Of a stretch of 59,796 bases of DNA, positions 8,960 through 54,160 are shown piece by piece (the first letter of the stretch is position 1; each line of letters begins with the position of its first letter). The translations under genes and the position numbers were made by a program. A model generated the notes under the pieces. The model did no database searches. It had not been told where the DNA came from and saw nothing but the letters and a program-made list of their open reading frames with translations. Origin of the DNA: a virus (taxonomy: Duplodnaviria; Caudoviricetes); the IMG/VR virus record IMGVR_UViG_3300036773_000041, positions 1 through 59,796 of that record. The stretch is one strand, 5' to 3'.

Positions 8960-11896
8960 GTGGTGCAGAACCCGCAGTGGCCTGTGATCGATGAGGCGAT
9001 CTCGTTCCCGTCCGGCCCGAACACGCCGCCGGGGCTCGCCACCGACCTGTGGTGCTCGGTGATTGGCCGCACCGAAGGCGCGACGACGTCGGATCGGGGC
9101 CGGCTCTACGAGCTCGACCAGGTCCAGACCGGCGAGTCCACAGTCATGCTGCGTAACACTGACGGCGCGTTCGACCCGGACAACGCATCCTCGCCGTTCT
9201 GGCCGCAGGTGATCCCGTACCGGGCGCACCGTCGCCGCGCCCAGTACCCGCCGACAGTGAACCTGCTGCTGCCCTCGCAGGCCACCTCCGGGCTCGCACC
9301 CGATACGCCGGGCGGGTCGCCGCTGGCTTTGGGCGCGACGCTGCCGCCGTCGGTCTACACCAACGCTGGAGGCTTCGCGACCACGGTCGCGGACACCGGC
9401 AGCTACAACGACTACCAGCTCGCCTTCCCGGCCAGCCCCGGCGTCCACGGCCGCGAGATCTTCCTCGGCGCATGGTCGGCCACGCCGGGGCAGGCGCACA
9501 CGGGGCAGGTCCGGGCCCGGTTCACCGCGGGCGTCGCGATCCAGATGCAGCTCTCGATCCAGTGGATCGGCGTCGACGGGCACACCCAGGTCGGGTTCAC
9601 CTCCGGCGCCGCGGTCACTTTGACCGGCGCCGATCAGACGTTGACGGTGACCTCGACCGCGCCAGCGAACACGGCCGGCGGCGTGCTGATCCTCTGGAAC
9701 ACCACCAGCCCCGCCTCCACGTCGACGGTCCGCGCGTCGCAGTTCCAGATCGAGCTCGGCTCGACCCCGTCGGCCTACGCGCAGCCGTCGATCTGGTTCC
9801 CGCTGATCACCGACTTCGTCCTCGAATGGCCGCAGACGTGGCTCGACAACGGCAACTACGGTGTCTCCAGCTTGCGGTGTGTCGACGCGTTCGGGTACCT
9901 GTCGCAACGCAACCTGAAGTCGCCGGCGTATATGGAGTTGCTGGCGTTGGGGCCGTCGTTTTTCTACCCGCTCGACGAAGCCACCGACACTGTCGTATTC
10001 GCTGACCTCACGGCGAACCGACCCAACGCCGGTGTTCTGCTGTCGGCTGCCGCGAACCCTGCCCAGGTCACGGCGGGCAGCAGTCTGCAGTCGACCGCGT
10101 CGCGTGCAGCGTCGGGGTTCCTGCCGCAGGGCATCGGTGGCCCGGTCGTGACCTTCTCCAACGACCCGGCGGGGCTGTCCGCGGCGACGATCAACATGGC
10201 GGCGTCGGCGCAGGCCCCGGTCGGGCCGCCGACCGGGGCCGCGTGGACGCGGCTGTTCGCGTTCCGGATGCCCGCCGCGCCGAGCACCAACGACTTCGCC
10301 CTGTGGTTCGCCTCCGATCAGCCTGGTCTCAACGCGATCGGGATCACCACGGGGTTCGCGTCCGGGGTCCTCGCGGTGACGGTCGCCAAGAACGGCTCGG
10401 TGGTCCTGTCGAACTTCATCACAGCGACCAGCATGGCCGACGGCGGCTGGCATCTGGTCGGGATCAGCATGAGCTCGGACGGCAAGTCGCTGACCACGTG
10501 GCTGGACAGCGGCCCGACGAACACGTACACCACGGCCAGCGACATGCGCCCGGTGCTCACCGGCGGCGCGGACCTCCTCGGCGGCGAAGTGCTCCTCGGC
10601 AGCGGCACCGCCTACAACGGGTTCATCGGCGACCTCGCCCTCGCCGCCGAACTGCCCTACGCCATCACCAACGCGCAGTGGACGGCGATCTACTCCGCGT
10701 TCCGGTACGGCGGGTCCGGGCGCGGTGTCGCATCGTCCGGGACCCGCTACCAGGACATCCTGCGCTGGGCGCAATGGGTCGGCCCGCAATCTGAGGACAC
10801 CTGGACGACGGGGGAGACGAACGCCTACGGCCCGGCTGTGGACCTCCTCGCGGCCGCCGCCGACCAGGGCACTGACGTCGTCACCGCCGGGCAGAACGTC
10901 GTCACCACCGAGAACGGCAACCATTTCGTCGCCAAAGACGGCACGGTCACGTTCAAAGCCCGACGGGCCCGATACAACCTGACCGTCCCGGCCGCGACGT
11001 TCGGTGAGAACACCGCCGGCGGGGAAATCCCTTACACAACCGCCAGCTTCGGCTACGACGTCACCCGCCTCGGCAACGACGCGTCGATCAACCAAACCTC
11101 CACTGGTGTCCCGACCCGCGTCATCGACCAGCCCTCGATCACCACCTACGGCGATGTGCAGCTGCAGCGTGACGTCAACACCCTCGACGGCAACGAGCTG
11201 TTCGACGCCGCGACGTTCCTCGTCGACCGGTACCGCAACCCGGCGCAGCGGCTGCAAACCATCAGCATCGACCTCGCAGCCAACCCCGCCGCGTGGCCGA
11301 CGCTGCTCGCCCTCGAGCTCGGGTCGCTGGCCCAGGTGATGCGCCGCCCACCGAACGCCCCGGCCCTGTCGTTCCTCGGGTTCGTGGAGAAAATCACCTG
11401 GAACATGACCGACCAGGTCGGCGCGGTCTGCTCCCTGGAGATCTCCTCAGCGACCGGCCTGCAATATGAGGTCGCCGGGTCGACCCGCATGACGTTGAAG
11501 AACGCGGTCACCGCGGCCGCGACGTCGATGACGTGCAACCCGCTCGCGGATGCAGCGACCAACCCGATCCAGGCCAACATTTCCGGCTCCGACGGGTACG
11601 CGACGTGGGTCATCGACTGGGGCACCGCCAACGCCGAATACGTGCAGATCAACGCCGTCACCCCCAACAGCCCGGGCTACACGTCAGCCGTGTTCGGGAT
11701 CGGGCTGTGCACCGACGTCGTCACCCTCGCCACCGGCACCGGGTTCCGGCACGCGCACGCCATCGGCGCGACGCTGCAGGACATCGGCGGTGCCGCGAAC
11801 ATCTACACCCTCGCGCAACTCACGCCGCTGCTCACCCCCGCGAACCAGCTCGACGCGCACGCGACGCTCGGCGTCTCCACCATCCTCGGCTACTGA
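8960..11896 (+). CDS. Large minor tail/baseplate protein with carbohydrate-binding-like and LamG-like domains
   Basis: GGAAAGGGG RBS before GTG 8960; RGR-x-ELD-x-QTGE...NTDGAFDPDN N-terminus; FFYPLDE and ADGGWHLVGI LamG-like motifs. Confidence 0.8.
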   Translation: MVQNPQWPVIDEAISFPSGPNTPPGLATDLWCSVIGRTEGATTSDRGRLYELDQVQTGESTVMLRNTDGAFDPDNASSPFWPQVIPYRAHRRRAQYPPTVNLLLPSQATSGLAPDTPGGSPLALGATLPPSVYTNAGGFATTVADTGSYNDYQLAFPASPGVHGREIFLGAWSATPGQAHTGQVRARFTAGVAIQMQLSIQWIGVDGHTQVGFTSGAAVTLTGADQTLTVTSTAPANTAGGVLILWNTTSPASTSTVRASQFQIELGSTPSAYAQPSIWFPLITDFVLEWPQTWLDNGNYGVSSLRCVDAFGYLSQRNLKSPAYMELLALGPSFFYPLDEATDTVVFADLTANRPNAGVLLSAAANPAQVTAGSSLQSTASRAASGFLPQGIGGPVVTFSNDPAGLSAATINMAASAQAPVGPPTGAAWTRLFAFRMPAAPSTNDFALWFASDQPGLNAIGITTGFASGVLAVTVAKNGSVVLSNFITATSMADGGWHLVGISMSSDGKSLTTWLDSGPTNTYTTASDMRPVLTGGADLLGGEVLLGSGTAYNGFIGDLALAAELPYAITNAQWTAIYSAFRYGGSGRGVASSGTRYQDILRWAQWVGPQSEDTWTTGETNAYGPAVDLLAAAADQGTDVVTAGQNVVTTENGNHFVAKDGTVTFKARRARYNLTVPAATFGENTAGGEIPYTTASFGYDVTRLGNDASINQTSTGVPTRVIDQPSITTYGDVQLQRDVNTLDGNELFDAATFLVDRYRNPAQRLQTISIDLAANPAAWPTLLALELGSLAQVMRRPPNAPALSFLGFVEKITWNMTDQVGAVCSLEISSATGLQYEVAGSTRMTLKNAVTAAATSMTCNPLADAATNPIQANISGSDGYATWVIDWGTANAEYVQINAVTPNSPGYTSAVFGIGLCTDVVTLATGTGFRHAHAIGATLQDIGGAANIYTLAQLTPLLTPANQLDAHATLGVSTILGY

Positions 11897-21959: not shown

Positions 21960-22168
21960 GCGGGGACTGCGGGGACACGGACGCCCGAGCAGGCCTGACA
22001 CCGCCCGACGCCACCCGAGCAACCCCCCGTATTTCCGGGGCTGCGCCGTTCCGGTCCAGCGTTCATGGGAGATTTCAGCGGGTTCGATTCCCGCCACCTC
22101 CACCGCTTTAGGTCCCATAATCCAGGGACTCTAGCACGGGCCCGGCCCTCGCGGGAACACGCGGGGAC
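21960..22168. other. attP site: core plus arm-type integrase repeats
   Basis: GCGGGGAC at 21960, 21969 and 22161, and GCGGGAAC at 22151, flank the core; adjacent to the integrase. Confidence 0.75.
22078..22104 (+). other. att core: 3' fragment of tmRNA (ssrA) or tRNA-Ala
   Basis: GCGGG-TTCGATT-CCCGC T-arm followed by CACCTCC-A-CC acceptor strand with U70 and discriminator A; no 5' half present. Confidence 0.85.
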
Positions 22169-22193
22169 TGGGCCCCGGCTATGCTGTCCCCCG

Positions 22194-23465
22194 ATGGCAA
22201 GCGTGGAGAAGCGAGAGAACAAGACGACAGGCCCGTCGTGGCGGGTGATCTGGCGTGAGAACGGGGACCGTCAGACCGAGCTGTTCCTCAGCGCGGAGGA
22301 GGCCGACCGGTTCCGTAACCTCGTCGAAGGGTCCGGCAACCAGTGGCCCCACGGATGGGTGAAAGGCCACGGGTTCACCGGCGCCGCGAAGACCGGCGCC
22401 GGGCTCACGTTCCGCGACTGGGCCGAGCAGGCGGTCACGCTCCGGACGAAGGCCACCGGCCGCACCCGGGCCGACTACCGCCGCGACCTCCGCCGCCACG
22501 TCTACCCGCACCTCGGGGCGCTACCGGTCGACGGCGTCACCGCCCGGGACGCCGTCAACTGGCTCGACAAGATGGTCGCCGCCGAGCTGGCCCCGAAGAC
22601 GATCTCCAACATCCACGGCCTCGTCTCCTCGATCATCGCCGACGGCATGTCACACCGCCCCCCGGTCTGCGACCACAACCCGTTCGCGTCCCGGCTCAAC
22701 GCACGGCCGGAGGTGCGGGTCGAGGAGATGGTGTTCCTCACCCCAGACGAGTTCGAGCTGTTCTACCGGCACATCCCGGCTTTCTACAAAGCGCTCACGC
22801 TGCTGCTGTGGGCGACCGGGCTGCGCTACGGGGAGGCGACCGCGCTGCGGGTCGGGGACCTGGTCCTCGACGGCAAGCGCCGCACCCTGACCGTGGTCCG
22901 GGCGTGGAAACGGCAAGACGGCGGCACCTACGAGATCGGTGAACCGAAGACGCGCCGCTCCAGGCGCACCCTGCCGCTGTCGCCGAAGCTCGCCGCCGCG
23001 CTGCGTCCGCTCGTGCGGGGCCGTCAGGCCGACGCCTACGTGTTCCCGGCCAAGGAGGGTGGGCAGCTGCTCAACTCGACGTTCCACGACGCGGCGTGGG
23101 TGCCTGCAGTCCGCCGTGCCCGCGTCTGCGACGAGCACCACGACGAGCAACGCAAGGCGTTCGACGAGGCCCGCGCCGCCCGGTCCGCTGCGCAGCGCGG
23201 CACTGGCCGGCGGATCCGGTTCGTGCCGGCGCCGTGCGCCTGCGAAGGGACGCTGACGAAGGAACCCCGGGTCCATGACATGCGGCATTCCCACGCGTCG
23301 CAGCTGATCGCCGAAGGGCTGCCGCTGCCGGTAATCTCCCGCCGGCTGGGCCACGCCTCGATCCAGGTGACGATCGACCGGTACGGGCACATGATGCCCG
23401 AGCTCGACGACGCGGTGAACGCCGCCGTCGACCGGGGCCTCGCCTGGCTGGACGAGGACGTTTAG
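22194..23465 (+). CDS. int: Tyrosine integrase
   Basis: TGLRYGE (R), PKT (K), HDMRH, RLGH and RY catalytic motifs; arm-binding N-terminus; TATGCT 8 nt before ATG suggests a leaderless transcript. Confidence 0.95.
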   Translation: MASVEKRENKTTGPSWRVIWRENGDRQTELFLSAEEADRFRNLVEGSGNQWPHGWVKGHGFTGAAKTGAGLTFRDWAEQAVTLRTKATGRTRADYRRDLRRHVYPHLGALPVDGVTARDAVNWLDKMVAAELAPKTISNIHGLVSSIIADGMSHRPPVCDHNPFASRLNARPEVRVEEMVFLTPDEFELFYRHIPAFYKALTLLLWATGLRYGEATALRVGDLVLDGKRRTLTVVRAWKRQDGGTYEIGEPKTRRSRRTLPLSPKLAAALRPLVRGRQADAYVFPAKEGGQLLNSTFHDAAWVPAVRRARVCDEHHDEQRKAFDEARAARSAAQRGTGRRIRFVPAPCACEGTLTKEPRVHDMRHSHASQLIAEGLPLPVISRRLGHASIQVTIDRYGHMMPELDDAVNAAVDRGLAWLDEDV

Positions 23466-29321: not shown

Positions 29322-30505
29322 CCGACACCACGACCACCGACCCCGGGAAGGCTGTCGCGCGACGCGAGACTGGCCCCGAGGCGCTGATCCGGCAGTACAG
29401 CGACGACTTCGCGACCGTCCTCCCATCGCACATCAAGGCCGCCACGTGGGTGCGGGTCGCGCAGGGCGCGCTCAAGAAGGGCAAGAAGACCAAGGTCCGC
29501 AACGCCAAGGGCGACTACGTCGAGGTGTTCGAGCTCGAACTCGCGGCGCACAACAACCCGGCCGCGTTCGTGTCCGCGCTGCTGGACGCCGCCCGGCAGG
29601 GCCTCGAGCCTGGCACGGAGCAGTACTACCTCACCCCCCGCAAGGTGGGTAGCCAGCTGGAGATCCTCGGCATGCGCGGTTATCAAGGCGAAGTCGAGCT
29701 CATGTACAGGGCCGGCGCCGTGTCCTCGGTGATCGTCGAGGTCGTCCGCGACCGCGACACGTTCATCTGGACGCCGGGCAAGATCGACCACCACCAGCCG
29801 CCTCGGTGGCAGGGCCCGATGGAGCGGCCGTACCACGAGGTCGACTGGTTCGGCGAGGACCGCGGCGACCTCCGCGGCGTCTACGCCTACGCGGTGATGA
29901 AGGACGGCGCGACCTCCCGCGTCGTCATCCTCAACCGCCGCGACATCGACCGGATCAAGTCGTTCGCGCAGGGCACGAAGTCGGAGTACTCGCCGTGGAA
30001 CACGAGCGAGGAGTCGATGTGGCTCAAGTCGGGCGCGCACCAGCTCCGCAAGTGGGTGCCCACGAGCGCCGAATACATCACCACGCAGGTCCGCGCGGTC
30101 CGGGAGGGCAACACCCCGGACCCGGTGTCGGTCGCGCCGCTGCGTGTCCAGCAGGACATGCCCGACGTGAACCCCGACCTGAACGGCGACACCTTCATCG
30201 CGCCGGACACCGTCGACGCCGAGGTCGTCCCCGACGACGAACCCCCAGCCGACGACACGCCGCCGCCTGAGCCGGGCCCGGAGATGGCCAGCAAAGTGCA
30301 GGTCGCGAAGCTGAACGCCACCCTCAACGGGTACGGCATCCGCGAGCGTGAACGTCGCCTCGCCGTGATCAGCCAGGTCCTCGACCGGGCTGTCGAGTCG
30401 CAGGAAACCCTCACCAAGCAGGAAGCGTCGACGGTCATCGACACCCTGGAGCAGATCCAGGGCGGCCGCGAGGCGTTCGAGGCGATCTTCGGCGGCGGGT
30501 CATGA
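29318..30505 (+). CDS. recT: RecT-family ssDNA annealing protein
   Basis: GLEPG...YYLTP...GYQGEVELMYRAG...YAYAVMKDG...SPW...MWLKS. Confidence 0.92.
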   Translation: MTDTTTTDPGKAVARRETGPEALIRQYSDDFATVLPSHIKAATWVRVAQGALKKGKKTKVRNAKGDYVEVFELELAAHNNPAAFVSALLDAARQGLEPGTEQYYLTPRKVGSQLEILGMRGYQGEVELMYRAGAVSSVIVEVVRDRDTFIWTPGKIDHHQPPRWQGPMERPYHEVDWFGEDRGDLRGVYAYAVMKDGATSRVVILNRRDIDRIKSFAQGTKSEYSPWNTSEESMWLKSGAHQLRKWVPTSAEYITTQVRAVREGNTPDPVSVAPLRVQQDMPDVNPDLNGDTFIAPDTVDAEVVPDDEPPADDTPPPEPGPEMASKVQVAKLNATLNGYGIRERERRLAVISQVLDRAVESQETLTKQEASTVIDTLEQIQGGREAFEAIFGGGS

Positions 30506-31780: not shown

Positions 31781-32043
31781 TGGGGAAGGACTACGCGCCG
31801 AAGTTTTGCCGGACCCGTCGGTGCACGCTGCGGTTCGGGCACGAGGAGAACTGCAACCTCCCGCAGCGGGTCGCCGTGCCGTGGCCCGGCAAGACCCCGG
31901 TCGCGCACGGCGTCACGGTGTTCTACCGACCGCGTAAGAGCCCCCGCATGCGGCACGGTACGGACCCGACGCCGCGCCGCTCCGCCGTGCTGCGCGTGGT
32001 CAACGGCGAGCAGCGCCGCCGCGCTGCGGAGCGCCAGTCATGA
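31777..32043 (+). CDS. Hypothetical protein
   Basis: Coupled; C...CTLRFGHEENC. Confidence 0.5.
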   Translation: MMGKDYAPKFCRTRRCTLRFGHEENCNLPQRVAVPWPGKTPVAHGVTVFYRPRKSPRMRHGTDPTPRRSAVLRVVNGEQRRRAAERQS

Positions 32044-32585
32044 CCGCGCCTGAGGTCAACGTGACCGAGTGGATGAACGGTGAGGTCCGCGCTGCCGTAC
32101 CGGAGAGTGGGCCGTTCGTCCCGGCAGAGTTGGCCATCAAGATCGTTGATCGGCTGGAGCGCTCCGACCCGGAGCAGTTCGCAGCGTGGCTGCGGCAGAA
32201 CGCAGTCGTGCTGCTGACCGATCAGATCGGTCGCATGCTGCGGTCCGAACGTGCCACGGCGCGTGCATCTGCTGGCCCGAGCGCGTTCGCCGAGTGGGCC
32301 GACAAGTCCGGCGCGGATGGCTCGCTGCCGTCTCCTGCGCTGCGGCTATGGAATCAGCGGCAGTGCGTGAACGACGCGAACGAGTGGAAACGCGAGTTCG
32401 AGCTCACCAAGCCTGACGCTCTCCACATCGCCAGCAGGGAGGAGACGCGCGGCCGAGCGGCTCTTATGCAAGGGGCGTTCTACAAGGCCGTCGCCAAGAA
32501 GGTTCCCAACGGCCAGACGATCGCCGACGTGTTCACCCCCGAGACCTACCAGGCCATGCGCGACTCAATCGTCGGCGGCGCCTGA
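32040..32585 (+). CDS. Uncharacterised protein, candidate accessory of the RAMP/array module
   Basis: 181-aa helical ORF with coupled start; ends 6 nt before the array. Confidence 0.7.
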   Translation: MTAPEVNVTEWMNGEVRAAVPESGPFVPAELAIKIVDRLERSDPEQFAAWLRQNAVVLLTDQIGRMLRSERATARASAGPSAFAEWADKSGADGSLPSPALRLWNQRQCVNDANEWKREFELTKPDALHIASREETRGRAALMQGAFYKAVAKKVPNGQTIADVFTPETYQAMRDSIVGGA

Positions 32586-32591
32586 TGCACA

Positions 32592-32885
32592 CGACTTCCC
32601 CCCCCAGCCCCCGTCTGCCCGGCACCCCTCCGCCCACACCCGACCACCCAGCCCACTCCACCGCTGCACCCGTCACGCCACTCCGTCCCGACAACCCGGC
32701 CCACCCCAGAGCTACTCCCTCCCCGCCTTTCCGACCGCCCAACCCAGCCTTCCCCAGCCCGACCCTGCCCCGCTCTGGCCGACTACCCCCCGCCCGCCCC
32801 ACCCGAATCGCGCCCAGCCGCCCCAGCCCGCTCCGACAGCCCATCCCTCCCCTGACCCATCCATCCCTGCCCTTCCCCACCCGAC
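32592..32885. repeat. Array of six ~48-nt CGAC-delimited units made of 5-nt NN-(C)CC modules (candidate guide-RNA array)
   Basis: CGAC at 32592, 32641, 32689, 32732, 32780, 32834 and 32882; the fifth base is C in 47 of 48 pentamers. Confidence 0.85.
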
Positions 32886-32903
32886 TAGCCGAAGGAATGA
32901 GTC

Positions 32904-33614
32904 ATGACTGATAGCCCGTTCGCGAAGTTCACCGAGAAGGCGTGGCCCCACCGATTCGAAGGCACGCTCACCGTCCCGACCCTGGTCGGTGGCATCCCGA
33001 CTGACCCGAACGTGGCTGAGGCGTGGCTGCGGTCGAAGCTCGCCGACAGCGACGACCTCATCCGCGCGCAGGTCGCCGAGACCATGACGGAACGCGGCGT
33101 CGGCGTCGACGAAGCGACCGAGATCGTCAACGCGAACAAGCACCTCAACGGCTTCAAACGCGACCAGGCCCGTGGCGGCGAGTTGTACATCGAGGGCCGC
33201 CAGTTGAAGGCCGCGCTCAAGGAGGCCGCATCGGTCGCCGTCGCGGCCGGGAAGCTCGACGCCCGCGGCTGGGGCAAGACGAACAAGGGCCTGCTCGGCT
33301 TCCTCGCCGAGCACGTCAGCGTCACCGAAGACCGCATCTACCTCGGGGTGACCAAACCGACCGGCATCCTCCAACGGTTCGTCCACACGTTCCGCGGCTC
33401 CGGCATCCAATACGAGGAGTACGTCGAGGACGCCGAGATCACGTTCACCGTCCGCTCTGACTGGCCATTCACCGACGAGCAGTGGGCGATGATCTGGCTG
33501 ACCGGCCAGGAGCAAGGTATCGGCGCGTCCAGGTCGCAGGGCTACGGCCGCTACACCGTCACCCGCTGGGAGCAGACGACCGGCGGTAAACGTCGAGTGT
33601 CGAGGGTCGCCTGA
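32904..33614 (+). CDS. Stand-alone RAMP superfamily (Cas7/Csm3-like) protein
   Basis: GAAGGA RBS; N-terminal strand then GG; LYIEGRQLKAALKEAA (cf. RAMP P-x-IPGSSLKGALR); C-terminal G-rich loop GIGASRSQGYGRY. Confidence 0.8.
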   Translation: MTDSPFAKFTEKAWPHRFEGTLTVPTLVGGIPTDPNVAEAWLRSKLADSDDLIRAQVAETMTERGVGVDEATEIVNANKHLNGFKRDQARGGELYIEGRQLKAALKEAASVAVAAGKLDARGWGKTNKGLLGFLAEHVSVTEDRIYLGVTKPTGILQRFVHTFRGSGIQYEEYVEDAEITFTVRSDWPFTDEQWAMIWLTGQEQGIGASRSQGYGRYTVTRWEQTTGGKRRVSRVA

Positions 33615-33847
33615 TGAGCGCCCCGCAGCAGGTGCAGCAGCCGGTGCCGACCCCGGTCGACCTCGCCACCGGCACCGTGCAAACCCCGGGCGGTCCGCTC
33701 GTCAACATCGTCGTCGCGACCGTCGTCGGGCAGATCGTCGTGTGGCTGCCGCCGGACAAGGCGAAGGCGTGGGCCGCGGCGATCGAACGTGAAGCCAGCC
33801 AAGCCCAAACGGGATTGCTGCTACCGCCGGGGGTGAACGGCCGATGA
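33614..33847 (+). CDS. Hypothetical protein
   Basis: TGATG coupling. Confidence 0.55.
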   Translation: MSAPQQVQQPVPTPVDLATGTVQTPGGPLVNIVVATVVGQIVVWLPPDKAKAWAAAIEREASQAQTGLLLPPGVNGR

Positions 33848-38530: not shown

Positions 38531-41037
38531 CCGCACTGCCCTACGAGGAGTTCCTGGCCGCGAAGTCGCAGCTGGCCACGGCGGCCGGGTTCGACGTCCA
38601 CCCCGACGAGGTGAACCTCGCGTTGAAGCCGCACCAGGTCGACGTCGTGCGATGGGCGGTTGCCGGCGGCCGGCGCGCGATCTTCGCGTCGTTCGGACTG
38701 GGCAAGAGCATCATCCAGTTGGAGGCGGTGCGGCTGACGCTCGCGCGGACCGGGGGCCGCGGGCTGATCGTGTGCCCGCTCGGCGTGCGGCAGGAGTTCA
38801 TCCGCGACGCAACGGAGCTACTCGAGACCGACCCGCCGCGGTTCATCCGCACCGCGGCCGAGGCCGACGCTGACGGCATCTACCTGACCAACTACGAGAC
38901 GGTCCGCGACCGGAAACTCGACCCGCGCGGCTTCGACGTGGTCAGCCTCGACGAGGCCGCGATCCTGCGCGGGTTCGGCGGCACCAAGACGTTCCGCGAA
39001 TTCATGCGCCTCTACGAGGGCACCTCCAACTACCGGTTCGTGGCCACCGCGACCCCATCACCGAACGACTACATCGAGCTGCTGGCCTACGCGGCGTTCC
39101 TCGACGTCCTCGACGTCGGCCAGGCCAAGACCCGGTTCTTCAAACGCGACTCCGAACACGCCGACAAGCTGACGCTGCTGCCGCACATGGAGGACGAGTT
39201 CTGGATGTGGGTGGCGTCGTGGGCGCTGTTCATCCAGAAACCCTCCGACCTCGGCTACTCCGACGAGGGGTACGCACTGCCGCCGCTGGACATCCGCTGG
39301 CACGAGGTCCCCGCCGCCGAACGCGGCGAAGCCGTGCCGGACCGGTCCGGTCGGGTCGAGCTGTTCCGCGACGCGGCGCTCGGCGTGCAGTCCGCGGCCG
39401 CGGAGAAGCGGGCCAGCATCGACGCCCGCGTCGCGAAGACACGCGAGCTGGTCGACGCCGCGCCGGGCGAGCACTTCCTGCTGTGGCACGACCTCGAAGC
39501 CGAGCGGCACGCCATCAAGGCCGCTGTCCCGGCCGCGACCACCGTGTGGGGGTCGCAGGACCTCGACGAGCGTGAGGCCGCCATCGCCGCCTTCTCCGAC
39601 GGCAAGATCACCCACCTCGCGACGAAGCCGGTGATCGCCGGATCCGGGTGCAACTTCCAGCGGCACTGCCACCGCGCGATCTTCACCGGCATCGGGTTCA
39701 AGTTCGCCGACTTCATTCAGGCGATCCACCGCATCCACCGGTTCCTGCAGACCGAGCCGGTCCGCATCGACCTGATCTACACCGAGGCCGAGCGGGAGAT
39801 CCGCCGCCGGCTTGAGCAGAAGTGGCGCAAGCACGACGAGCTGGTCGCCCGCATGGGCGACATCATCCGCGAGCACGGCCTGTCCCACGAGGCGATCGCC
39901 GGCGGCCTGCGCCGCTCCATCGGCGTCGAACGGCAAGAAGCCAGTGGCGAGGGCTACCGCCTGGTCAACAACGACTCCGTCGTCGAGACCTCGACCATGG
40001 CTGCCGACTCCGTGGACCTGATCGTCACGTCGATCCCGTTCGCCACCCAGTACGAGTACACCCCGTCCTACAACGACTTCGGTCACACCGACGACAACGA
40101 CCATTTCTGGTCGCAGATGGACTACCTGACCCCGCAGCTGCTCCGCGTCCTCAAGCCCGGGCGGGTCGCCGCGATCCACGTCAAGGACCGGGTCGTGCCC
40201 GGCGGCATGACCGGCCTCGGATTCCAGACCGTGCACCCGTTCCACAGCGAAGCGATCGACCACTACCGCCGGCACGGGTTCGCGTTCCTCGGGATGAAGA
40301 CGATCGTCACCGACGTCGTCCGGGAAAACAACCAGACCTACCGCCTCGGCTGGACCGAGCAATGCAAGGACGGCACCCGCATGGGCGCCGGCCTCCCCGA
40401 GTACCTGCTGCTGCTCCGCAAGCCACCCACCGACGCGAGCGACGGGTACGCCGACGACCCCGTGGTGAAGGACAAGGACGCCTACACGCGCAGCCGCTGG
40501 CAGGTCGACGCGCATGGGTTCATGCGCTCCAACGGCGACCGGCATCTGCTGCCCGAGGAGTTCGCCGGCATCCCGCACGACCAGATGTTCCGCCTGTTCC
40601 GCGACCACAACCTGGCCAACGTCTACGACTACGAGGACCACGTCGCGGTCGGCGAAGCGCTCGAAGCGAAACGGTTGCTGCCGACGACGTTCATGCTGCT
40701 GCAGACCCCGTCATGGCACCCGGACGTGTGGACCGACGTCGCGCGGATGCGCACCCTGAACATGCTGCAGCAACGCAAGGGCCTCGCCCAGCATCTGTGC
40801 CCGCTGCAGTTCGACATCGTCGACCGGCTCGTCACCCAGTACTCCATGCCCGGGGAGACGGTGTTCGACCCGTTCGGCGGCATCATGACCGTCCCCTACT
40901 GCGCGGTGAAGCTCGGCCGAGTCGGTATCGCATGCGAGCTCAACCCCGACTACTGGCGAGACGGCGTCGCCCACGTCGAAGCGCAAGCCGCCGGCGCATC
41001 CACGCCCAGCCTGTTCGACCTTGAGGAGACAGCGTGA
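38527..41037 (+). CDS. SNF2-like helicase fused to N4/N6 DNA methyltransferase
   Basis: GLGKS, LDEA, TATPSPND and GCNFQ helicase motifs; TSIPF catalytic motif then HLCP and DPFGG SAM motif (beta-class order). Confidence 0.9.
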   Translation: MTALPYEEFLAAKSQLATAAGFDVHPDEVNLALKPHQVDVVRWAVAGGRRAIFASFGLGKSIIQLEAVRLTLARTGGRGLIVCPLGVRQEFIRDATELLETDPPRFIRTAAEADADGIYLTNYETVRDRKLDPRGFDVVSLDEAAILRGFGGTKTFREFMRLYEGTSNYRFVATATPSPNDYIELLAYAAFLDVLDVGQAKTRFFKRDSEHADKLTLLPHMEDEFWMWVASWALFIQKPSDLGYSDEGYALPPLDIRWHEVPAAERGEAVPDRSGRVELFRDAALGVQSAAAEKRASIDARVAKTRELVDAAPGEHFLLWHDLEAERHAIKAAVPAATTVWGSQDLDEREAAIAAFSDGKITHLATKPVIAGSGCNFQRHCHRAIFTGIGFKFADFIQAIHRIHRFLQTEPVRIDLIYTEAEREIRRRLEQKWRKHDELVARMGDIIREHGLSHEAIAGGLRRSIGVERQEASGEGYRLVNNDSVVETSTMAADSVDLIVTSIPFATQYEYTPSYNDFGHTDDNDHFWSQMDYLTPQLLRVLKPGRVAAIHVKDRVVPGGMTGLGFQTVHPFHSEAIDHYRRHGFAFLGMKTIVTDVVRENNQTYRLGWTEQCKDGTRMGAGLPEYLLLLRKPPTDASDGYADDPVVKDKDAYTRSRWQVDAHGFMRSNGDRHLLPEEFAGIPHDQMFRLFRDHNLANVYDYEDHVAVGEALEAKRLLPTTFMLLQTPSWHPDVWTDVARMRTLNMLQQRKGLAQHLCPLQFDIVDRLVTQYSMPGETVFDPFGGIMTVPYCAVKLGRVGIACELNPDYWRDGVAHVEAQAAGASTPSLFDLEETA

Positions 41038-41342
41038 GCGAGATCCGGTCGCAGGCCGACCTCGAGCTGATGCGCCGCACGGACCTGATCACCCGCTCCC
41101 TGACGCGCCGCCGCTGTGAGGCTGCGGTCCGCGCGCACCTCACCGTCCGCCCGGCGACGTCGGCCGAGATCTTCCAGGCCATGCCCGAGGACGAACCGCT
41201 GGAGATCCAGGACCTCCTCATGTGGCACCGCGGCTGCATGCAGTCCGACGTGCAGCAGGTCCTCGTCACCCTCGAACGCGCCGGGGTCACGACCCGCCTC
41301 ATCCTGCCGAGCGTCAAGGCCCACCTGTGGTGGCTGCTATGA
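41034..41342 (+). CDS. Hypothetical protein
   Basis: GAGGAG RBS; coupled. Confidence 0.5.
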   Translation: MSEIRSQADLELMRRTDLITRSLTRRRCEAAVRAHLTVRPATSAEIFQAMPEDEPLEIQDLLMWHRGCMQSDVQQVLVTLERAGVTTRLILPSVKAHLWWLL

Positions 41343-41710
41343 GCACCGGCATCTGGGCGGTCAGCCTCGAAGTGCTGTGCACCCGGCTGCCGTGCTCCGT
41401 GAAGGACGAGGCCACCGTCCGGTCGACGAACTGCGAGGACGCCCGCACCGGCGCGATGAAAGTGCTGCGCTACCGCGGCTGGCTCCTCGGTGGACGCGAC
41501 GCGACGCTGTGCCCGAAACACGCCGGCCCGATGCCGTGCTGTGTGCGCTGCGACGACCCGACACCCCGCCTGTACCTCGACACCGTGCCGTGGACCGGAC
41601 CCGAACTCGCCGACCTGGCCAAGCCGACGCTGCTGTGCCCCGGCTGCCGCAGATGGGCCCGTGAGCTGTGGCTCACCCGACTCCACACCGAACGAGAGGC
41701 CGCGCAGTGA
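41339..41710 (+). CDS. Cys-rich hypothetical protein
   Basis: GW...LCPKH, CVRC and LCPGC motifs. Confidence 0.55.
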   Translation: MSTGIWAVSLEVLCTRLPCSVKDEATVRSTNCEDARTGAMKVLRYRGWLLGGRDATLCPKHAGPMPCCVRCDDPTPRLYLDTVPWTGPELADLAKPTLLCPGCRRWARELWLTRLHTEREAAQ

Positions 41711-43766: not shown

Positions 43767-43831
43767 CCGAACTTCGCGCGCAGTGCGCGACCCCGTCCCG
43801 TCCCGTCCCGTCCCGTCCCGTCCCGACCCGA
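43700..43831 (+). repeat. CGAAC iteron-like repeats and (CCCGT)6(CCCGA)2 microsatellite; candidate origin
   Basis: CGAAC at 43700, 43734, 43745, 43757 and 43768; pentamer run 43792-43831. Confidence 0.7.
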
Positions 43832-43946
43832 CCACAAGAACTCCCTTCACTCACCATCCACACCAACGACGAGAACCAGCACACGCGAGCGACCGTCGGT
43901 GGATAGAAGCCCACCCCATGACCCACATCCGAAGGGACACCACCAC

Positions 43947-48832: not shown

Positions 48833-48908
48833 CGCCCGGTAGGGGAGTTCGGCTGTCCCCGCCGCCCTCATACAGCGGAGATCGCAGGTTCGAATCCTGC
48901 CCGGGCTA
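48833..48908 (+). tRNA. tRNA with CAT anticodon (Met/fMet-like), CCA not encoded
   Basis: Cloverleaf: acceptor CGCCCGG/CCGGGCT, D stem GGGG/CCCC, anticodon arm CCGCC-CTCATAC-AGCGG, T arm GCAGG-TTCGAAT-CCTGC. Confidence 0.85.
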
Positions 48909-49070
48909 CTGTCCCCGCGCCCCGTGCGGGCATCCGCCGAGTGACCCCCATACGCGCTGTGGAAGAACGGCTGCAACGGGGCTGCGCCCATGGCGGCGGG
49001 TGAACTCCCGCAACCTGTGGAAGGTCGGGACGCGGGGACTCCAACCAACCGACGAGGGGAGGCGCACACC

Positions 49071-50158: not shown

Positions 50159-51793
50159 ATGACGGCCTCCCTCGACTGGGTCGAACACGCAGCCCGATCG
50201 TTCGAACCCGGCGGCACCACCCGGATCGCGCAGTGGGACACCCCCGGTGACCTCGCCCGGGCGGTCAACCCGCACACGGTGCAGACACCGGCGTTGGACC
50301 TGATCGACCGCGAGCTCGTGCAGGCGTGGAACACCCCGGACGCGCGGCTGATCATCTCGATGCCGCCGCAGGAGGGGAAGTCCGAGCGGGTCACGAAGAC
50401 CGGGAACCTGTGGGCACTGACCCGCAACCCGGACACCCGCATCGCGATCGCCTCCTACGCCCAGTCGTTGGCGGAGGGGTTCGGCCGGGAGATCCGCAAC
50501 TGGATCACCACGAACAACGGCGACGACGACACCCTCGACCTCGGCCTGGCGATCGCCCGCGACAACGGCGCCGCCCGACGCTGGCAACTCTCCGGCCACC
50601 GCGGCGGCGTCATCTGCGTCGGCATCGGATCCGGGTTCACCGGCCGCCCCGCCGACGCGCTGGTCATCGACGACCCGTTCGCCGACGCCGAGCAAGCCGA
50701 CTCCGAGTACTACCGCGACCGCGTCTGGGAATGGTGGCAGGCCGTCTCCGGGCCGCGTCTCGCCCCCGGCGCGCCGGTCATCGTGATCCTGACCCGCTGG
50801 CATGAGGACGACCTCGCCGGCCGCCTCCAAGCCGCCGAGGACGGCCACGTGTGGCGGGTCCTGAACATCCCCGCCCAGGCCGACCACAAACCCGACGAAG
50901 GCCAGACCGACCCGCTCGGCCGTGAGCCGGGGCAGTGGCTGCAATCGGCGCGGCGGCGCAGCCGTGAGCAGTGGGAAGCGATCCGGATCCGGTCCGGGTC
51001 CCGCGTGTTCAACGCCCTCTACCAAGGCCACCCGTCACCGGACTCCGGGAACGTGTGGAAACGGCCGTGGTGGCGCCGCTACCGCACGATGCTGTGGACG
51101 CAGCACCCCAACGACCCCGCCGCGTACCTCGTCCACGACATGGACGAGGTCATCCAGTCCTGGGACATGACGTTCAAGGACACCAAAGGCAGCGACTTCG
51201 TCTCCGCCACCGTCTGGGCCCGCCGCGGCGCCGAAGTGTTCCTCCTCGACAAGATCCACAAGCGGCTCACGTTCACCGACACCCTCGCCGCGTTCCGTGC
51301 CCTGACCGCGAAATGGCCGCAGGCGACCGCGAAACTCGTCGAGGACAAAGCCAACGGCACCGCCGTGATCAACATGCTGCAGTCGGAGATCGGCGGCATC
51401 GTGCCGGTCAACCCGACCGAATCGAAATACGCCCGCGCGAACGCCGTGTCACCGTTCATCGAGGCCGGCAACGTGTACCTCCCCGACGACGAGATCGCGT
51501 TGCCGGGCGTCGACGTCGACTCACTGATCGACGAGGCCGCGGCGTTCCCGAACGCCGCCCACGACGACGAGGTCGACTCGACCTCCCAAGCGCTGGCGAG
51601 GCTGCTCTTGGACGGCACAGGCGCACAGGCCTGGATGGAGTACCTCAAGCGGCTCGCTGCCGGCGAGCCCGCACCCGGCAACCAACCCGCTGCGCCACCG
51701 GCCGTCGAGCCGGCCGCCGAACCCGATCCCGACGACGGGTTGAGCCCGCTGCAGCGGGCCCGCAACGAAGCGTTCCGCGCCAACTACCGGTAA
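50159..51793 (+). CDS. terL: Terminase large subunit
   Basis: MPPQEGKS Walker A, IDDP Walker B, TRWHEDD, SWD, EDKANG and HDDEVDS motifs. Confidence 0.96.
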   Translation: MTASLDWVEHAARSFEPGGTTRIAQWDTPGDLARAVNPHTVQTPALDLIDRELVQAWNTPDARLIISMPPQEGKSERVTKTGNLWALTRNPDTRIAIASYAQSLAEGFGREIRNWITTNNGDDDTLDLGLAIARDNGAARRWQLSGHRGGVICVGIGSGFTGRPADALVIDDPFADAEQADSEYYRDRVWEWWQAVSGPRLAPGAPVIVILTRWHEDDLAGRLQAAEDGHVWRVLNIPAQADHKPDEGQTDPLGREPGQWLQSARRRSREQWEAIRIRSGSRVFNALYQGHPSPDSGNVWKRPWWRRYRTMLWTQHPNDPAAYLVHDMDEVIQSWDMTFKDTKGSDFVSATVWARRGAEVFLLDKIHKRLTFTDTLAAFRALTAKWPQATAKLVEDKANGTAVINMLQSEIGGIVPVNPTESKYARANAVSPFIEAGNVYLPDDEIALPGVDVDSLIDEAAAFPNAAHDDEVDSTSQALARLLLDGTGAQAWMEYLKRLAAGEPAPGNQPAAPPAVEPAAEPDPDDGLSPLQRARNEAFRANYR

Positions 51794-51814: not shown

Positions 51815-54160
51815 ATGGGTGTGGTCTCCCGCCTCCGGAAGGTCTTCGGACCTCCAGCCTCGGCAGCGATCCAGGCGTCTGAGCAGACGCAGGGCATGAC
51901 CCCGGACCGGGCGTTCTCCCCCGGGGAGCCGATCGGCCCCTACGACGGGTACTCGACCACCCCGCGTAGCCGTGACTTCGTCACCGGCTACAACATCGCC
52001 GCCCGTCCGCGCCGCAACGAGCGGGTGTCGTTCGAGACGCTCCGGGGCCTGGTCGACGCCTACGACGTCGCGCAGATGTGCATCTGGCACCGCATCGACT
52101 CGATCCGTTCGTTGAAGTGGTCCCTCGTCGCCGGCGACAGCGTCGAGGGTGACGTCACCGACGCCATCAAGATCGGTAAGGCGGCGCTCACGAAGCCGGA
52201 CCGGCGGATGCCGTTCAAGCCGTGGCTCGGGAAGTGGCTCTACGACATCCTCGCGTTCGACGCCGGCACCCTGTACCGGCTGCGGAACCGCGGCGGCCGG
52301 GCGATCGGGTTGAAGGTCGTCGACGGCACCAGCATCGCCCCGCTGCTGGATGCGTGGGGCGACTCACCGGAATCGCCGGCGCCGTCGTTCGTGCAGTTCG
52401 CGCAGGGCGTGCCGTGGGTGTGGCTCACCGAGGACGACCTGATCTACTCGCCGTTCCGGGCCACCAGCTCGACGCCGTATGGGAAGTCGCCGATCGAGAC
52501 GATCCTCCTCAACGCCAACACCGACCTGCGGTTCCAGTCGTACTTCCTGCAGCGGTTCACCGACGGCAACATCCCCGAGGCGTTCGCTTCCGCGCCCGAG
52601 ACGTGGACCGCCGACCAGGTGCAGCAATTCCAGCAGTACTGGGACACGTTCATGCTCGGCGACCAGGCCGCGAAGCATCAGGTGAAGTGGATCCCCGGCG
52701 GCGGCGGCATCGAATGGTCCAACGAGAAGGACTACAGCGACGCGTTCTCCCTGTTCCTGATGCGGAAGACGTGCGCCGCCTACCACGTCACCCCTGCGTC
52801 GCTCGGGTTCACCGACAACGTCAACCGCTCCAGCGGCGAGTCGCAGGCCGACGTGCAGGACACCGTCGGGGACCGGCCCCTGGCCGAGCACATCCAGGAC
52901 GTGCTGACCGCGTTCATCCATGACGACCTCGGCCTGCCGCTGAAGTTCGAGTTCGACCTCGGCGACGAGGAAGAGGACCGGCTCGCGACCGCCCAGTCCG
53001 ACGGCCACTACATCGACCGTGGCGTCGTGTCCTCGTCGGAGATCCGGCAGATGCGTTACGGCCTCCCCGAGCCGAACGGCGTGCCGGTGCCCCGCTACAT
53101 CTACACGCCGCGCGCCGGGGCGATCCCCCTGTCGGCGCTGTACGCGGTCGCCGGCCCGACCGACCCCGAGTCGGCCGCGCCCGCCCCGGGCGCTGAGCTG
53201 CCCCACAAGCCGTTCGCGCTGATCGAGGGTGTCGCCCCGCAGGAGCCGCCGAAGGCGCCCCCGCTCGCGGTCGTGCGCTACCCCGAGGACAACGCGCCGT
53301 CGGTGGCGGCTGCGGTCGCCACGCAGGACGATCCGGTTCTGAAAGAGTTGACCGCCGGCATCACGTCGGACACCGGCGTCACCTCCTACGACCTGATCGG
53401 CCGCGACGGCGAGGTCATCGACGACGGCGACCCCGACGAGGTCGCCAAGTCCGTCGAGCTGGCCGCGTACCGCCGGTTCGTGAAGGCCCGCGCGCGCGCC
53501 GGGAAGTGGCGCGACTTCACCTTCGCGTCGCTCGACCCGGTCACCGCGCACCGCCTCAACGACCAGGGCCGCGCCGCCGTGCGGAAGGACGCCGGGCAGA
53601 CCATCGCCGCCGGCCTCGCCGTGCAAGCGGTCGACACCGGCCGCGTCCTGATGCTGCAACGGGCCCTCGCCGACGGCGACCCGGCCGGCGGCTGCTGGGA
53701 GTTCCCCGGCGGCCACGTCGAGGACGGCGAGACCCCGGTCGCTGCGGCGCGCCGTGAGTGGCAGGAGGAGGTGGGCTGCCTCCTCCCCGAAGGCGACGTC
53801 ACCGGCCAGTGGGCCAGCGGCAACGGCATCTATGAGGGCTTCGTCCTCACCATCGCCGCCGAGCAGATGGTCGACATCCGCGACCGCGGGCAGGTCAACA
53901 ACCCCGACGACCCCGACGGCGACATCGTCGAGGCCATCGCATGGTGGGACCCGACCCAGCTCGTCGGCATGCCGGCGCTGCGCCCGGAGCTCGCGGGCGA
54001 CCTCGACGTGGTCCTCAACTCCGTCTCCCGCGCCATCGACGACACGGTCGCTGCCGCGCAGACGGCCGGGCTGGTCAAGGCGAGTGATGCCGACCCAAAA
54101 GCCCCAGCTGGCGTGACGGCCCCGGGCTTGTTCCGCAGCATCAATTCGACCTACCGCTGA
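51815..54160 (+). CDS. Portal protein with C-terminal NUDIX domain
   Basis: YGKSPIE...FTDGNIP portal motifs; Nudix box GGHVEDGETPVAAARREWQEEVG. Confidence 0.9.
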   Translation: MGVVSRLRKVFGPPASAAIQASEQTQGMTPDRAFSPGEPIGPYDGYSTTPRSRDFVTGYNIAARPRRNERVSFETLRGLVDAYDVAQMCIWHRIDSIRSLKWSLVAGDSVEGDVTDAIKIGKAALTKPDRRMPFKPWLGKWLYDILAFDAGTLYRLRNRGGRAIGLKVVDGTSIAPLLDAWGDSPESPAPSFVQFAQGVPWVWLTEDDLIYSPFRATSSTPYGKSPIETILLNANTDLRFQSYFLQRFTDGNIPEAFASAPETWTADQVQQFQQYWDTFMLGDQAAKHQVKWIPGGGGIEWSNEKDYSDAFSLFLMRKTCAAYHVTPASLGFTDNVNRSSGESQADVQDTVGDRPLAEHIQDVLTAFIHDDLGLPLKFEFDLGDEEEDRLATAQSDGHYIDRGVVSSSEIRQMRYGLPEPNGVPVPRYIYTPRAGAIPLSALYAVAGPTDPESAAPAPGAELPHKPFALIEGVAPQEPPKAPPLAVVRYPEDNAPSVAAAVATQDDPVLKELTAGITSDTGVTSYDLIGRDGEVIDDGDPDEVAKSVELAAYRRFVKARARAGKWRDFTFASLDPVTAHRLNDQGRAAVRKDAGQTIAAGLAVQAVDTGRVLMLQRALADGDPAGGCWEFPGGHVEDGETPVAAARREWQEEVGCLLPEGDVTGQWASGNGIYEGFVLTIAAEQMVDIRDRGQVNNPDDPDGDIVEAIAWWDPTQLVGMPALRPELAGDLDVVLNSVSRAIDDTVAAAQTAGLVKASDADPKAPAGVTAPGLFRSINSTYR

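Follow-up and report, generated by a model that had tools for sequence, protein, structure and literature searches.

The cassette described here lies in a 59.8-kb contig, IMG/VR virus record IMGVR_UViG_3300036773_000041 (59,796 nt; we call this whole stretch the window), which was binned with an actinobacterial metagenome-assembled genome (MAG). The window is the DNA of a temperate tailed soil phage of actinobacteria. On its plus strand an open reading frame (ORF) of 181 aa (32040..32585), a vap-like accessory gene that we call the partner gene, is followed by a C-rich modular array and by an ORF of 236 aa (32904..33614), a stand-alone RAMP gene of the Cas7 group that we call vipr-like, or vipr for short. 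The gap between the two ORFs measures 318 nt, of which 57% is C (182/318). The initial annotation had drawn this three-part cassette with units of ~48 nt, a ribosome-binding site (RBS) starting 5 nt after the last CGAC, and no cas genes or CRISPR repeat-spacer array in the genome. Each of these statements was borne out: both ORFs lie as described with the array between them, six guides of ~48 nt could be parsed, and the RBS has the predicted spacing. Scanning of 56 window ORFs against PADLOC revealed no cas gene, and Tandem Repeats Finder (TRF) detected no CRISPR-like repeat in the window; the combination that marks a class 1 CRISPR-Cas system, a repeat-spacer array with cas1/cas2 or a multi-subunit effector, is absent from it.

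The tetranucleotide CGAC occurs in the gap at positions 32592, 32641, 32689, 32732, 32760, 32780, 32834 and 32882. The array parses into six plus-strand units between 32593 and 32882, each made of GAC and 8-10 pentamers NNxCC, where NN are the two variable letters; two of the units carry one extra C. Unit 1 (32593..32641, 49 nt) has nine pentamers and an extra C, with the NN pairs TT, CC, AG, CC, TG, GG, CC, CG and AC; unit 2 (32642..32689, 48 nt) has nine pentamers; unit 3 (32690..32732, 43 nt) has eight, with the pairs AA, GG, AC, AG, TA, CC, CC and TT; unit 4 (32733..32780, 48 nt) has nine; unit 5 (32781..32834, 54 nt) has ten and an extra C; and unit 6 (32835..32882, 48 nt) has nine. The CGAC at 32760 is no boundary, being an incidental product of a GA dinucleotide within unit 4. 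Only GAC (or CGAC) separates the units, and we saw on them no structured 3′ tail of the kind that characterizes type II VIPR systems (see below). The array is closed on the same strand by a terminal delimiter, GACTAGCC (32883-32890), which together with the RBS of the RAMP gene, GAAGGA, occupies 32883..32896; the ATG follows at 32904. In those relatives with an upstream array that we inspected, a closing GACnnnCC stands likewise directly 5′ of the RBS.

The five-base step is evident locally. In a 40-nt window, the period-5 power of C reached 0.73, compared with 0.24 ± 0.07 in shuffled sequences, a value attained by none of 2000 shuffles, and the top five of 1190 contig windows ranked by period-5 power all fall within the array. 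Fourier analysis of the whole array at period 5 was not significant (0.16 versus 0.24) because each 3-nt GAC resets the phase. We pooled array anatomy over 20 regions from 19 related loci. There, 130 of the 298 CGAC-to-CGAC distances were equal to 3 modulo 5, the remaining classes holding 60, 54, 31 and 23, while the same distances taken modulo 3 (those of 20 nt or more) were flat at 78, 73 and 71. Among 475 internal pentamers, C was present at position 5 in 97%, at position 4 in 70% and at position 3 in 53%, and positions 1 and 2 were near uniform. The pentamer that follows GAC is partly conserved (T/A, then A/T/G) and nevertheless contributes to the target matches described below.

The 236-aa protein has no match in Pfam or PHROGs, and its sequence search against PDB returned chance matches only (E-value 0.7 or worse). 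Its AlphaFold2 (AF2) model, made with 70 diverse homologues, has a mean predicted local distance difference test score (pLDDT) of 87.5 and a predicted template-modelling score (pTM) of 0.80. Foldseek placed type VII Cas7 and type III Csm3 first among PDB structures (E-value 9e-8), with 183 matches at E-value ≤0.001, and the VIA structure search, which is independent of Foldseek, aligned 162 residues to Csm3 with a Z-score of 11.7 and a root-mean-square deviation of 3.8; the first 32 rows of the VIA output are all CRISPR RAMPs. A comparison with predicted viral structures gave uncharacterized phage proteins as top matches, one of them labeled RAMP. As judged from its model, then, the protein is of the Cas7/Csm3-type RAMP fold, in agreement with the RAMP hallmarks noticed in the initial annotation.

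VIPR systems have been described in preprints of 2026 (10.64898/2026.04.26.720920, 10.64898/2026.04.26.720927, 10.64898/2026.10.15.759431 and 10.64898/2026.10.21.760802) and, in the portions of these texts available to us, are presented as one Cas7-like protein with short guides in five-base steps (10.64898/2026.04.26.720920). That preprint covers 2,664 Vipr proteins. We found the locus of Escherichia phage SUSP1 in KT454805: a 195-aa gene has H17, E71 and M72 at the positions given in the structure preprint, and YNNGG repeats flank this vipr gene on the gene strand. Comparison of our family profile with the single SUSP1 Vipr sequence gave a weak match (probability 14.5%, E-value 0.0019); comparison by hhalign with a profile of the SUSP1 Vipr family gave a probability of 94.5% and an E-value of 7.4e-8 over 137 columns, helix-1 and the G-loop included. 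Profile comparison places the 236-aa protein as a remote homologue of the family of SUSP1 Vipr, and the resemblance to VIPR put forward in the initial annotation is one to a system now in print.

Megablast of the locus against phage records gave no match, and tblastn against the same records revealed a single homologue, in Microcystis phage Mae-JY09. The protein family is nevertheless large, with 1615 members at E-value ≤0.001 among 2459 candidates, or 555 representatives after clustering at 50% identity. Members with a named source include those of Streptomyces (Streptomyces sp. NPDC004237), Actinomadura (A. nitritigenes), Nocardiopsis (N. tropica), a Caldilineaceae MAG and the Microcystis phage. 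In this cultured cyanophage (PP395641.1, 37713-38976; locus L001) the homologue is 37% identical to the window protein and is annotated as hypothetical; a partner gene lies upstream of it and a C-rich, GAC-punctuated array is situated at the extreme end of the genome.

The association of gene and array is conserved. A C-rich tract on the gene strand adjoins the gene, before or after it, in 18 of the first 19 loci besides the window's own copy. From IMG/VR we took 79 viral loci with flanks of up to 10 kb, and a strict detector found an array within 1.5 kb of the gene in 53 of them, 45 having arrays of C-type only, four of both orientations and four of G-type only. With jackhmmer the family of the 181-aa partner was detected in 60 of 84 related loci; its genes share the strand of vipr without exception, and most of them immediately precede the array. 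The partner has no match in Pfam or PHROGs; its AF2 model (pLDDT 91) is mostly helical and no known fold is supported for it (best Foldseek E-value 0.56, best VIA Z-score 4.9), neither of the two structure searches finding a DNA-binding or nuclease fold. We detected no similarity between the partner and vap1 of SUSP1.

According to the accessible text of the VIPR preprint (10.64898/2026.04.26.720920), successive NN pairs read a DNA target in which a single base is skipped between them, this base tending to fall on the codon wobble position. The double-stranded DNA (dsDNA) site is identical for either strand of the array, and thus a test of the skip is independent of which strand is the guide. 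For this test, 1.36 Mb of DNA from related phages, in which arrays had been masked, was searched with 260 guides of seven or more pentamers. At skips of 0, 1, 2 and 3 bases the guides with a perfect match numbered 1, 3, 0 and 1, respectively (0, 1, 1 and 1 after shuffling of NN pairs), and hits with no more than one mismatch numbered 2, 13, 2 and 4 for eight-pentamer guides and 0, 2, 0 and 0 for nine-pentamer guides, the 13 hits at skip 1 including repeats on homologous sites; for guides of at least nine pentamers the comparison is likewise 2 at skip 1 against 0, 0 and 0. In a smaller scan (95 guides with seven or more pentamers, 170,762 bases) perfect matches appeared at skip 1 only, with 16/16 bases for a guide of locus L007 and 14/14 for one of L009, the best result at skips 0, 2 and 3 being 13/14.

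Individual guides of the window gave stronger results. With one skipped base, guide 1 matches 18/18 bases at positions 11149-11174 of locus L034 and 17/18 in L061; when the order of its NN pairs was shuffled, none of 600 shuffles reached 18 and three of 600 reached 17. In L034 the site lies in register with the codons of a 491-aa ORF, where it encodes V-R-G-P-H-G-L-G-K, with each skipped base on a third codon position. This ORF, missed by Pfam, is a terminase large subunit (phrog_2, E-value 3e-39). An exact scan of IMG/VR showed matches to guide 1 in at least 120 contigs; every one of the 80 fetched lies in an open frame, encodes AVRGPHGLGK and has varied flanking sequence. The pattern by itself all but dictates this peptide, but it does not dictate how many matches there are, that their frames are open or that their flanks are conserved. 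The predicted target of guide 1 is the stretch of codons for the Walker-A motif in a family of terminase large subunits present in other phages. The window has no homologue of this terminase, its own (phrog_38) belonging to another family.

Guide 3, with 16 fixed bases, matches 16/16 in 106 IMG/VR contigs. Of 80 fetched matches, 79 have an open codon frame on the opposite strand, encoding ANGGYLVPF(T/Q)LDP, and here too the skipped base falls on the wobble position; the genes are Phage_capsid by Pfam in five of five tested cases and phrog_10 in two of two. The sequence matches give the NGGYLVPF motif of HK97-type major capsid genes as the predicted target of guide 3. Both results follow the expectation of the initial annotation that the variable NN specify a discontinuous target: joined with one skipped base, they match conserved genes of other phages exactly.

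The four other guides provide rough internal controls as patterns of the same length. Guide 2 has no exact match in IMG/VR and 13 scattered hits in metagenomes with no gene in common; guide 4 has 10 IMG/VR hits, all to one near-identical lineage with a 56-aa open frame of no known family, and is ambiguous; guide 5 has no exact match in IMG/VR; and guide 6 has one hit there, outside any open frame. Within the window itself, guides 1 and 3 match no better than at the shuffle level, and self-hits are at the null level save for guide 2. This guide matches 16/18 bases at 33719-33744, codon-aligned (T-V-V-G-Q-I-V-V-W) in the window's own ORF 33614-33847 just downstream of vipr. About two of 200 shuffles do as well (printed fraction 0.01), which is marginal given 24 tests, and the match could be a relic of a guide against the same gene in rivals, or chance.

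Guides of the related loci were considered in the same way. The last guide of L007 (at 2934, the same as 9934 of L022) matches 16/16 bases of a conserved, codon-aligned site, K-V-A-E-G-W-L, situated ~90 nt into the vipr gene of six other loci (L004, L010/L027, L013/L031, L014/L032, L062 and L078), while its match to its own vipr is only 14/16; no perfect match was obtained in 600 shuffles. To judge by these matches, this looks like VIPR-against-VIPR targeting with self-escape. On the window itself, with one skipped base, guides of other phages gave 14/14 at 41326-41345 (L024) and 15/16 at 39891-39913 (L048), and with one mismatch allowed the relatives' guides gave five hits at skip 1, compared with 0, 1 and 2 at the other skips. 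As 13 of 600 shuffles equal the 14/14 of L024, this match is probably due to chance, and none of these hits on the window is secure. Taken over all guides, the sequence evidence points to the one-skipped-base code being used in this divergent C-rich clade.

The cassette shares a good deal with the type II VIPR of SUSP1. In both, the phage has a small Cas7-like RAMP that stands alone and belongs to one superfamily, encoded in a two-gene operon with an accessory gene; pentamers have three fixed and two variable letters, one base is skipped on codon wobble positions, and targets lie in other mobile elements. There are also differences. SUSP1 has GGY on the gene strand and the window has NNyCC; the initial annotation was correct in calling the array C-rich on the gene strand and CGAC-delimited, and this is a real departure from the YNNGG repeats on the vipr strand of SUSP1. 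The SUSP1 vrRNAs are ~100 nt long with a structured 3′ tail and stand amid promoter-like and hairpin sequences of their own (read by eye, not scanned), whereas the guides of the window measure 43-54 nt and abut one another inside the operon with only GAC between them. A structured 3′ tail, as far as the portion of the preprint available to us goes, defines type II and not VIPR overall (10.64898/2026.04.26.720920). The window's partner is unrelated to SUSP1 vap1, and its targets are terminase and capsid motifs across many phages, in contrast to one satellite or prophage for SUSP1.

Other arrays in print come closer in layout. In the ‘staggered’ vrRNA arrays, as outlined in the accessible part of the same preprint (10.64898/2026.04.26.720920), guides are contiguous, each beginning where its predecessor ends and overlapping it by 1 nt; CGAC of the window behaves likewise, its C still belonging to the pentamer before, and the third letter is relaxed in both. 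By that text, the staggered architecture was not one of those confirmed by small-RNA sequencing (10.64898/2026.04.26.720920). Non-canonical VIPR arrays found with a genomic language model are also 5-nt periodic, lie beside Vipr-like folds and have fixed letters other than GGY; the excerpt available names GAC/NN, CAC/NN, WGT/NN and TGH/NN and includes no CC-type (10.64898/2026.10.21.760802). The modeled protein resembles the Cas7/Csm3 backbones of types III, IV and VII in its predicted RRM core, thumb-like hairpin and glycine-rich loop. Unlike CRISPR Cas7 effectors, it is accompanied in the window by no CRISPR array and no other cas gene, its step is 5 nt instead of 6 nt and its guide is non-contiguous. 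The clade as a whole differs from the VIPRs studied so far in its CC letters, bare GAC marks, replaced contacts and a partner without known fold.

We consider it highly probable that the cassette is a VIPR-type RNA-guided system, whichever strand provides the guide. The early operon would encode the partner protein, six guides and a lone Cas7-like Vipr homologue. By analogy with SUSP1, Vipr protomers would line up on a guide, one per pentamer, holding the fixed letters and presenting the two variable letters of each; the presented pairs would read dsDNA with every third base skipped, and binding would silence the target gene. With the skipped base on the wobble position, one guide covers many synonymous variants. 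Guides appear to be aimed at motifs of essential late genes conserved at the protein level, such as the terminase P-loop and the HK97 capsid motif, and the likely role of the system is exclusion of competing phages, also from a lysogen.

The guides may arise from the C-rich sense transcript of the operon by cleavage at every GAC, a choice of strand to which we lean without much margin. Such cutting would yield RNAs 5′-GAC(NNyCC)n with a handle complementary in its letters to the published GGY, and a single transcript would be the source of the mRNAs for partner and Vipr as well as of up to a dozen or more guides. The whole account, a VIPR-type exclusion system with sense-strand C-rich guides, has in our estimate a slightly better than even chance of being right; the narrower proposal that the clade switched its fixed letters from GGY to YCC, with guides cut at GAC from sense mRNA and broad exclusion by the prophage, we would regard as evenly poised.

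Several lines of evidence argue for the sense strand. Of the clustered parsed guides, 373 of 407 (92%) are on the vipr strand, and the SUSP1 repeats are also co-oriented with vipr. The array occupies the whole space from the partner stop codon to the vipr RBS, and between 31000 and 35000 we saw no promoter- or terminator-like site by a sigma-70-type consensus, which says little for actinobacteria; with the array so placed and no such site seen, the vipr mRNA must carry the array. Locus L069 has, in addition, an inverted array of 17 guides (2119-2961) opposite to the vipr strand and 3′ of co-directional genes, the nearest of which is a DNA methyltransferase; a third array lies ~5 kb away. This inverted array ends at a 16-bp bidirectional terminator (2042-2079) shared with the convergent vipr operon. 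No second vipr was found beside the inverted arrays of L069 or L055. Divergent arrays in L055, L060 and L063 stand ~100-115 nt from vipr, versus the usual ~20 nt, which leaves room for divergent promoters. Finally, the SUSP1 residues that contact G are replaced in the window protein: in the hhalign alignment, a profile alignment at 18% identity that leaves H17 outside the aligned part, D177 corresponds to A208, W178 to S209, the thumb residue R138 to E171, E71 to R99 and M72 to Q100, so that five of six alignable RNA contacts differ, R179 alone aligning with an arginine, the invariant R210.

A number of points weigh against this account. Apart from the low identity of the alignment just mentioned, binding, the oligomer step and silencing are all taken over by analogy. 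The local excess of matches at skip 1 is small in count, though individual matches are strong; a clear target was obtained for only two of the six guides, and guide 3, with its 16 bases, has no control pattern of the same length. The strict detector left 26 of the 79 loci without an array. A relaxed period-5 scan of these 26 found eight with C-power ≥0.7, six of which (L030, L049, L050, L070, L078 and L096) appeared array-like on inspection, mainly with one C per step fixed; the expectation of the initial annotation that homologues would have adjacent 5-nt-periodic arrays holds for the 53 strict loci and, under the relaxed scan, for more. The best-fixed letters of the array, C at position 5 and at position 4, are the exact complement of GG. 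On the opposite strand GAC becomes a 3′ GUC, on the same side as the constant tail of SUSP1 vrRNAs. The preprint also lists NNNGG repeats, and its staggered vrRNAs with 1-nt overlap, as far as the accessible text describes them, fit CGAC and may be this very layout read from the opposite strand.

The last three of these points favor a system of the same VIPR type whose guide is the antisense, G-rich strand, with the unit 5′-(GGnNN)n-GUC-3′, transcribed against the operon and cut at GUC/G like the published staggered arrays. We regard this as a serious alternative of distinctly lower probability than sense guides. It accommodates the target matches equally well, the dsDNA targets being the same for both strands. 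In most loci it would need a promoter inside or beyond vipr, where none was seen with the sigma-70-type consensus, and the antisense guide would meet the obligatory sense transcript as its perfect complement. In L069 the G-rich reading begins right after the strong terminator, with ~40 nt to spare. The opposite strand of the arrays reads GG(g>c>a>t)NN, with a purine at position 3 in ~68% of pentamers, a position from which SUSP1 excludes purines, and hence the Y of GGY is kept on neither strand. The replacement of the aligned G-contact residues also speaks against G-rich guides.

A further possibility is that C-rich sense guides act on RNA, being complementary to the target mRNA as with the Cas7 backbones of types III and VII. 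The closest solved folds are indeed those of RNA-targeting type III and VII Cas7; the gene-strand NN of guides 1 and 3 and of the L022 guide are antisense to the target coding strand, and codon composition puts all six guides of the window on the antisense side, in a test that says little, a uniform model (ln 1/16) giving a better fit than either of the two codon models. Over the clade, only 203 of 386 guides favor antisense, and therefore both orientations are used; mixed orientation is also found in SUSP1, where the preprint, in its available part, takes it as a sign of DNA targeting (10.64898/2026.04.26.720920). Neither Pfam and PHROGs nor Foldseek and VIA revealed a nuclease partner. Altogether we consider RNA targeting improbable. 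It is still less probable, to the point of being hardly credible, that the tract is a gene for a proline-rich protein or a C-rich leader and that the RAMP acts without it: an ATG-started ORF (32585-32911, 108 aa) does span the array and overlaps both neighbors, but among 52 related arrays a stop-free sense frame exists in 43, often in all three frames, as a by-product of C-richness, and in the other nine no frame is free of stops; the units have lengths of 5n+3, not multiples of 3, the period is 5 and not 3, and NN strings match exact in-frame targets elsewhere, so that we rejected the 108-aa ORF as a composition artifact.

The gene content of the window, identified with Pfam and PHROGs, is that of a tailed phage. 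It encodes an integrase (22065-23465), RecT (29330-30505), tail tube proteins, a tape measure protein, a GH25 lysin, an HNH endonuclease, a DUF2303 protein, a DNA methylase, a MuF-like protein and the terminase large subunit (50159-51793). The cassette sits in the early rightward operon with recombination genes on one side and the DUF2303 and methylase genes on the other. The portal protein (51815-54160) carries a fused C-terminal NUDIX hydrolase domain, which also matches a candidate-defense model of PADLOC. Rfam scanning of the window found tRNA only, a tRNA-Met (CAT) at 48833-48909 between the early genes and the terminase. At 43789-43835, remote from the vipr locus and in a stretch that is doubtfully coding, a 5-nt unit is repeated in tandem almost perfectly (7.8 copies at 43792-43830, TRF consensus CCCGT); in the register of the array this tract reads GAC..(CGTCC)x6(CGACC)x2 and is guide-like, each variable pair being CG.

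As described in the accessible portions of the preprints, only GGY-type VIPRs of Proteobacteria have been experimentally tested so far. What the analysis adds is evidence, at the level of sequence, for a one-skipped-base code in a divergent clade and for two guides aimed at terminase and capsid motifs of other phages. In a large clade the five-base step is retained and so, by computation, is the reading with one skipped base, while letters, punctuation, contact residues and partner differ. The wobble skip would be used beyond escape-proofing, as one guide of nine pentamers covers a conserved amino-acid motif in at least 120 diverse phage contigs. If the C-rich strand provides the guide, the fixed handle of the VIPR code can be re-specified, which, if true, would matter for the origin of RNA recognition by RAMP proteins and for the engineering of orthogonal systems. 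Should both the switch to YCC and the sense cutting prove true, the prophage would gain a broad-spectrum exclusion of competitors that is proof against synonymous mutation.

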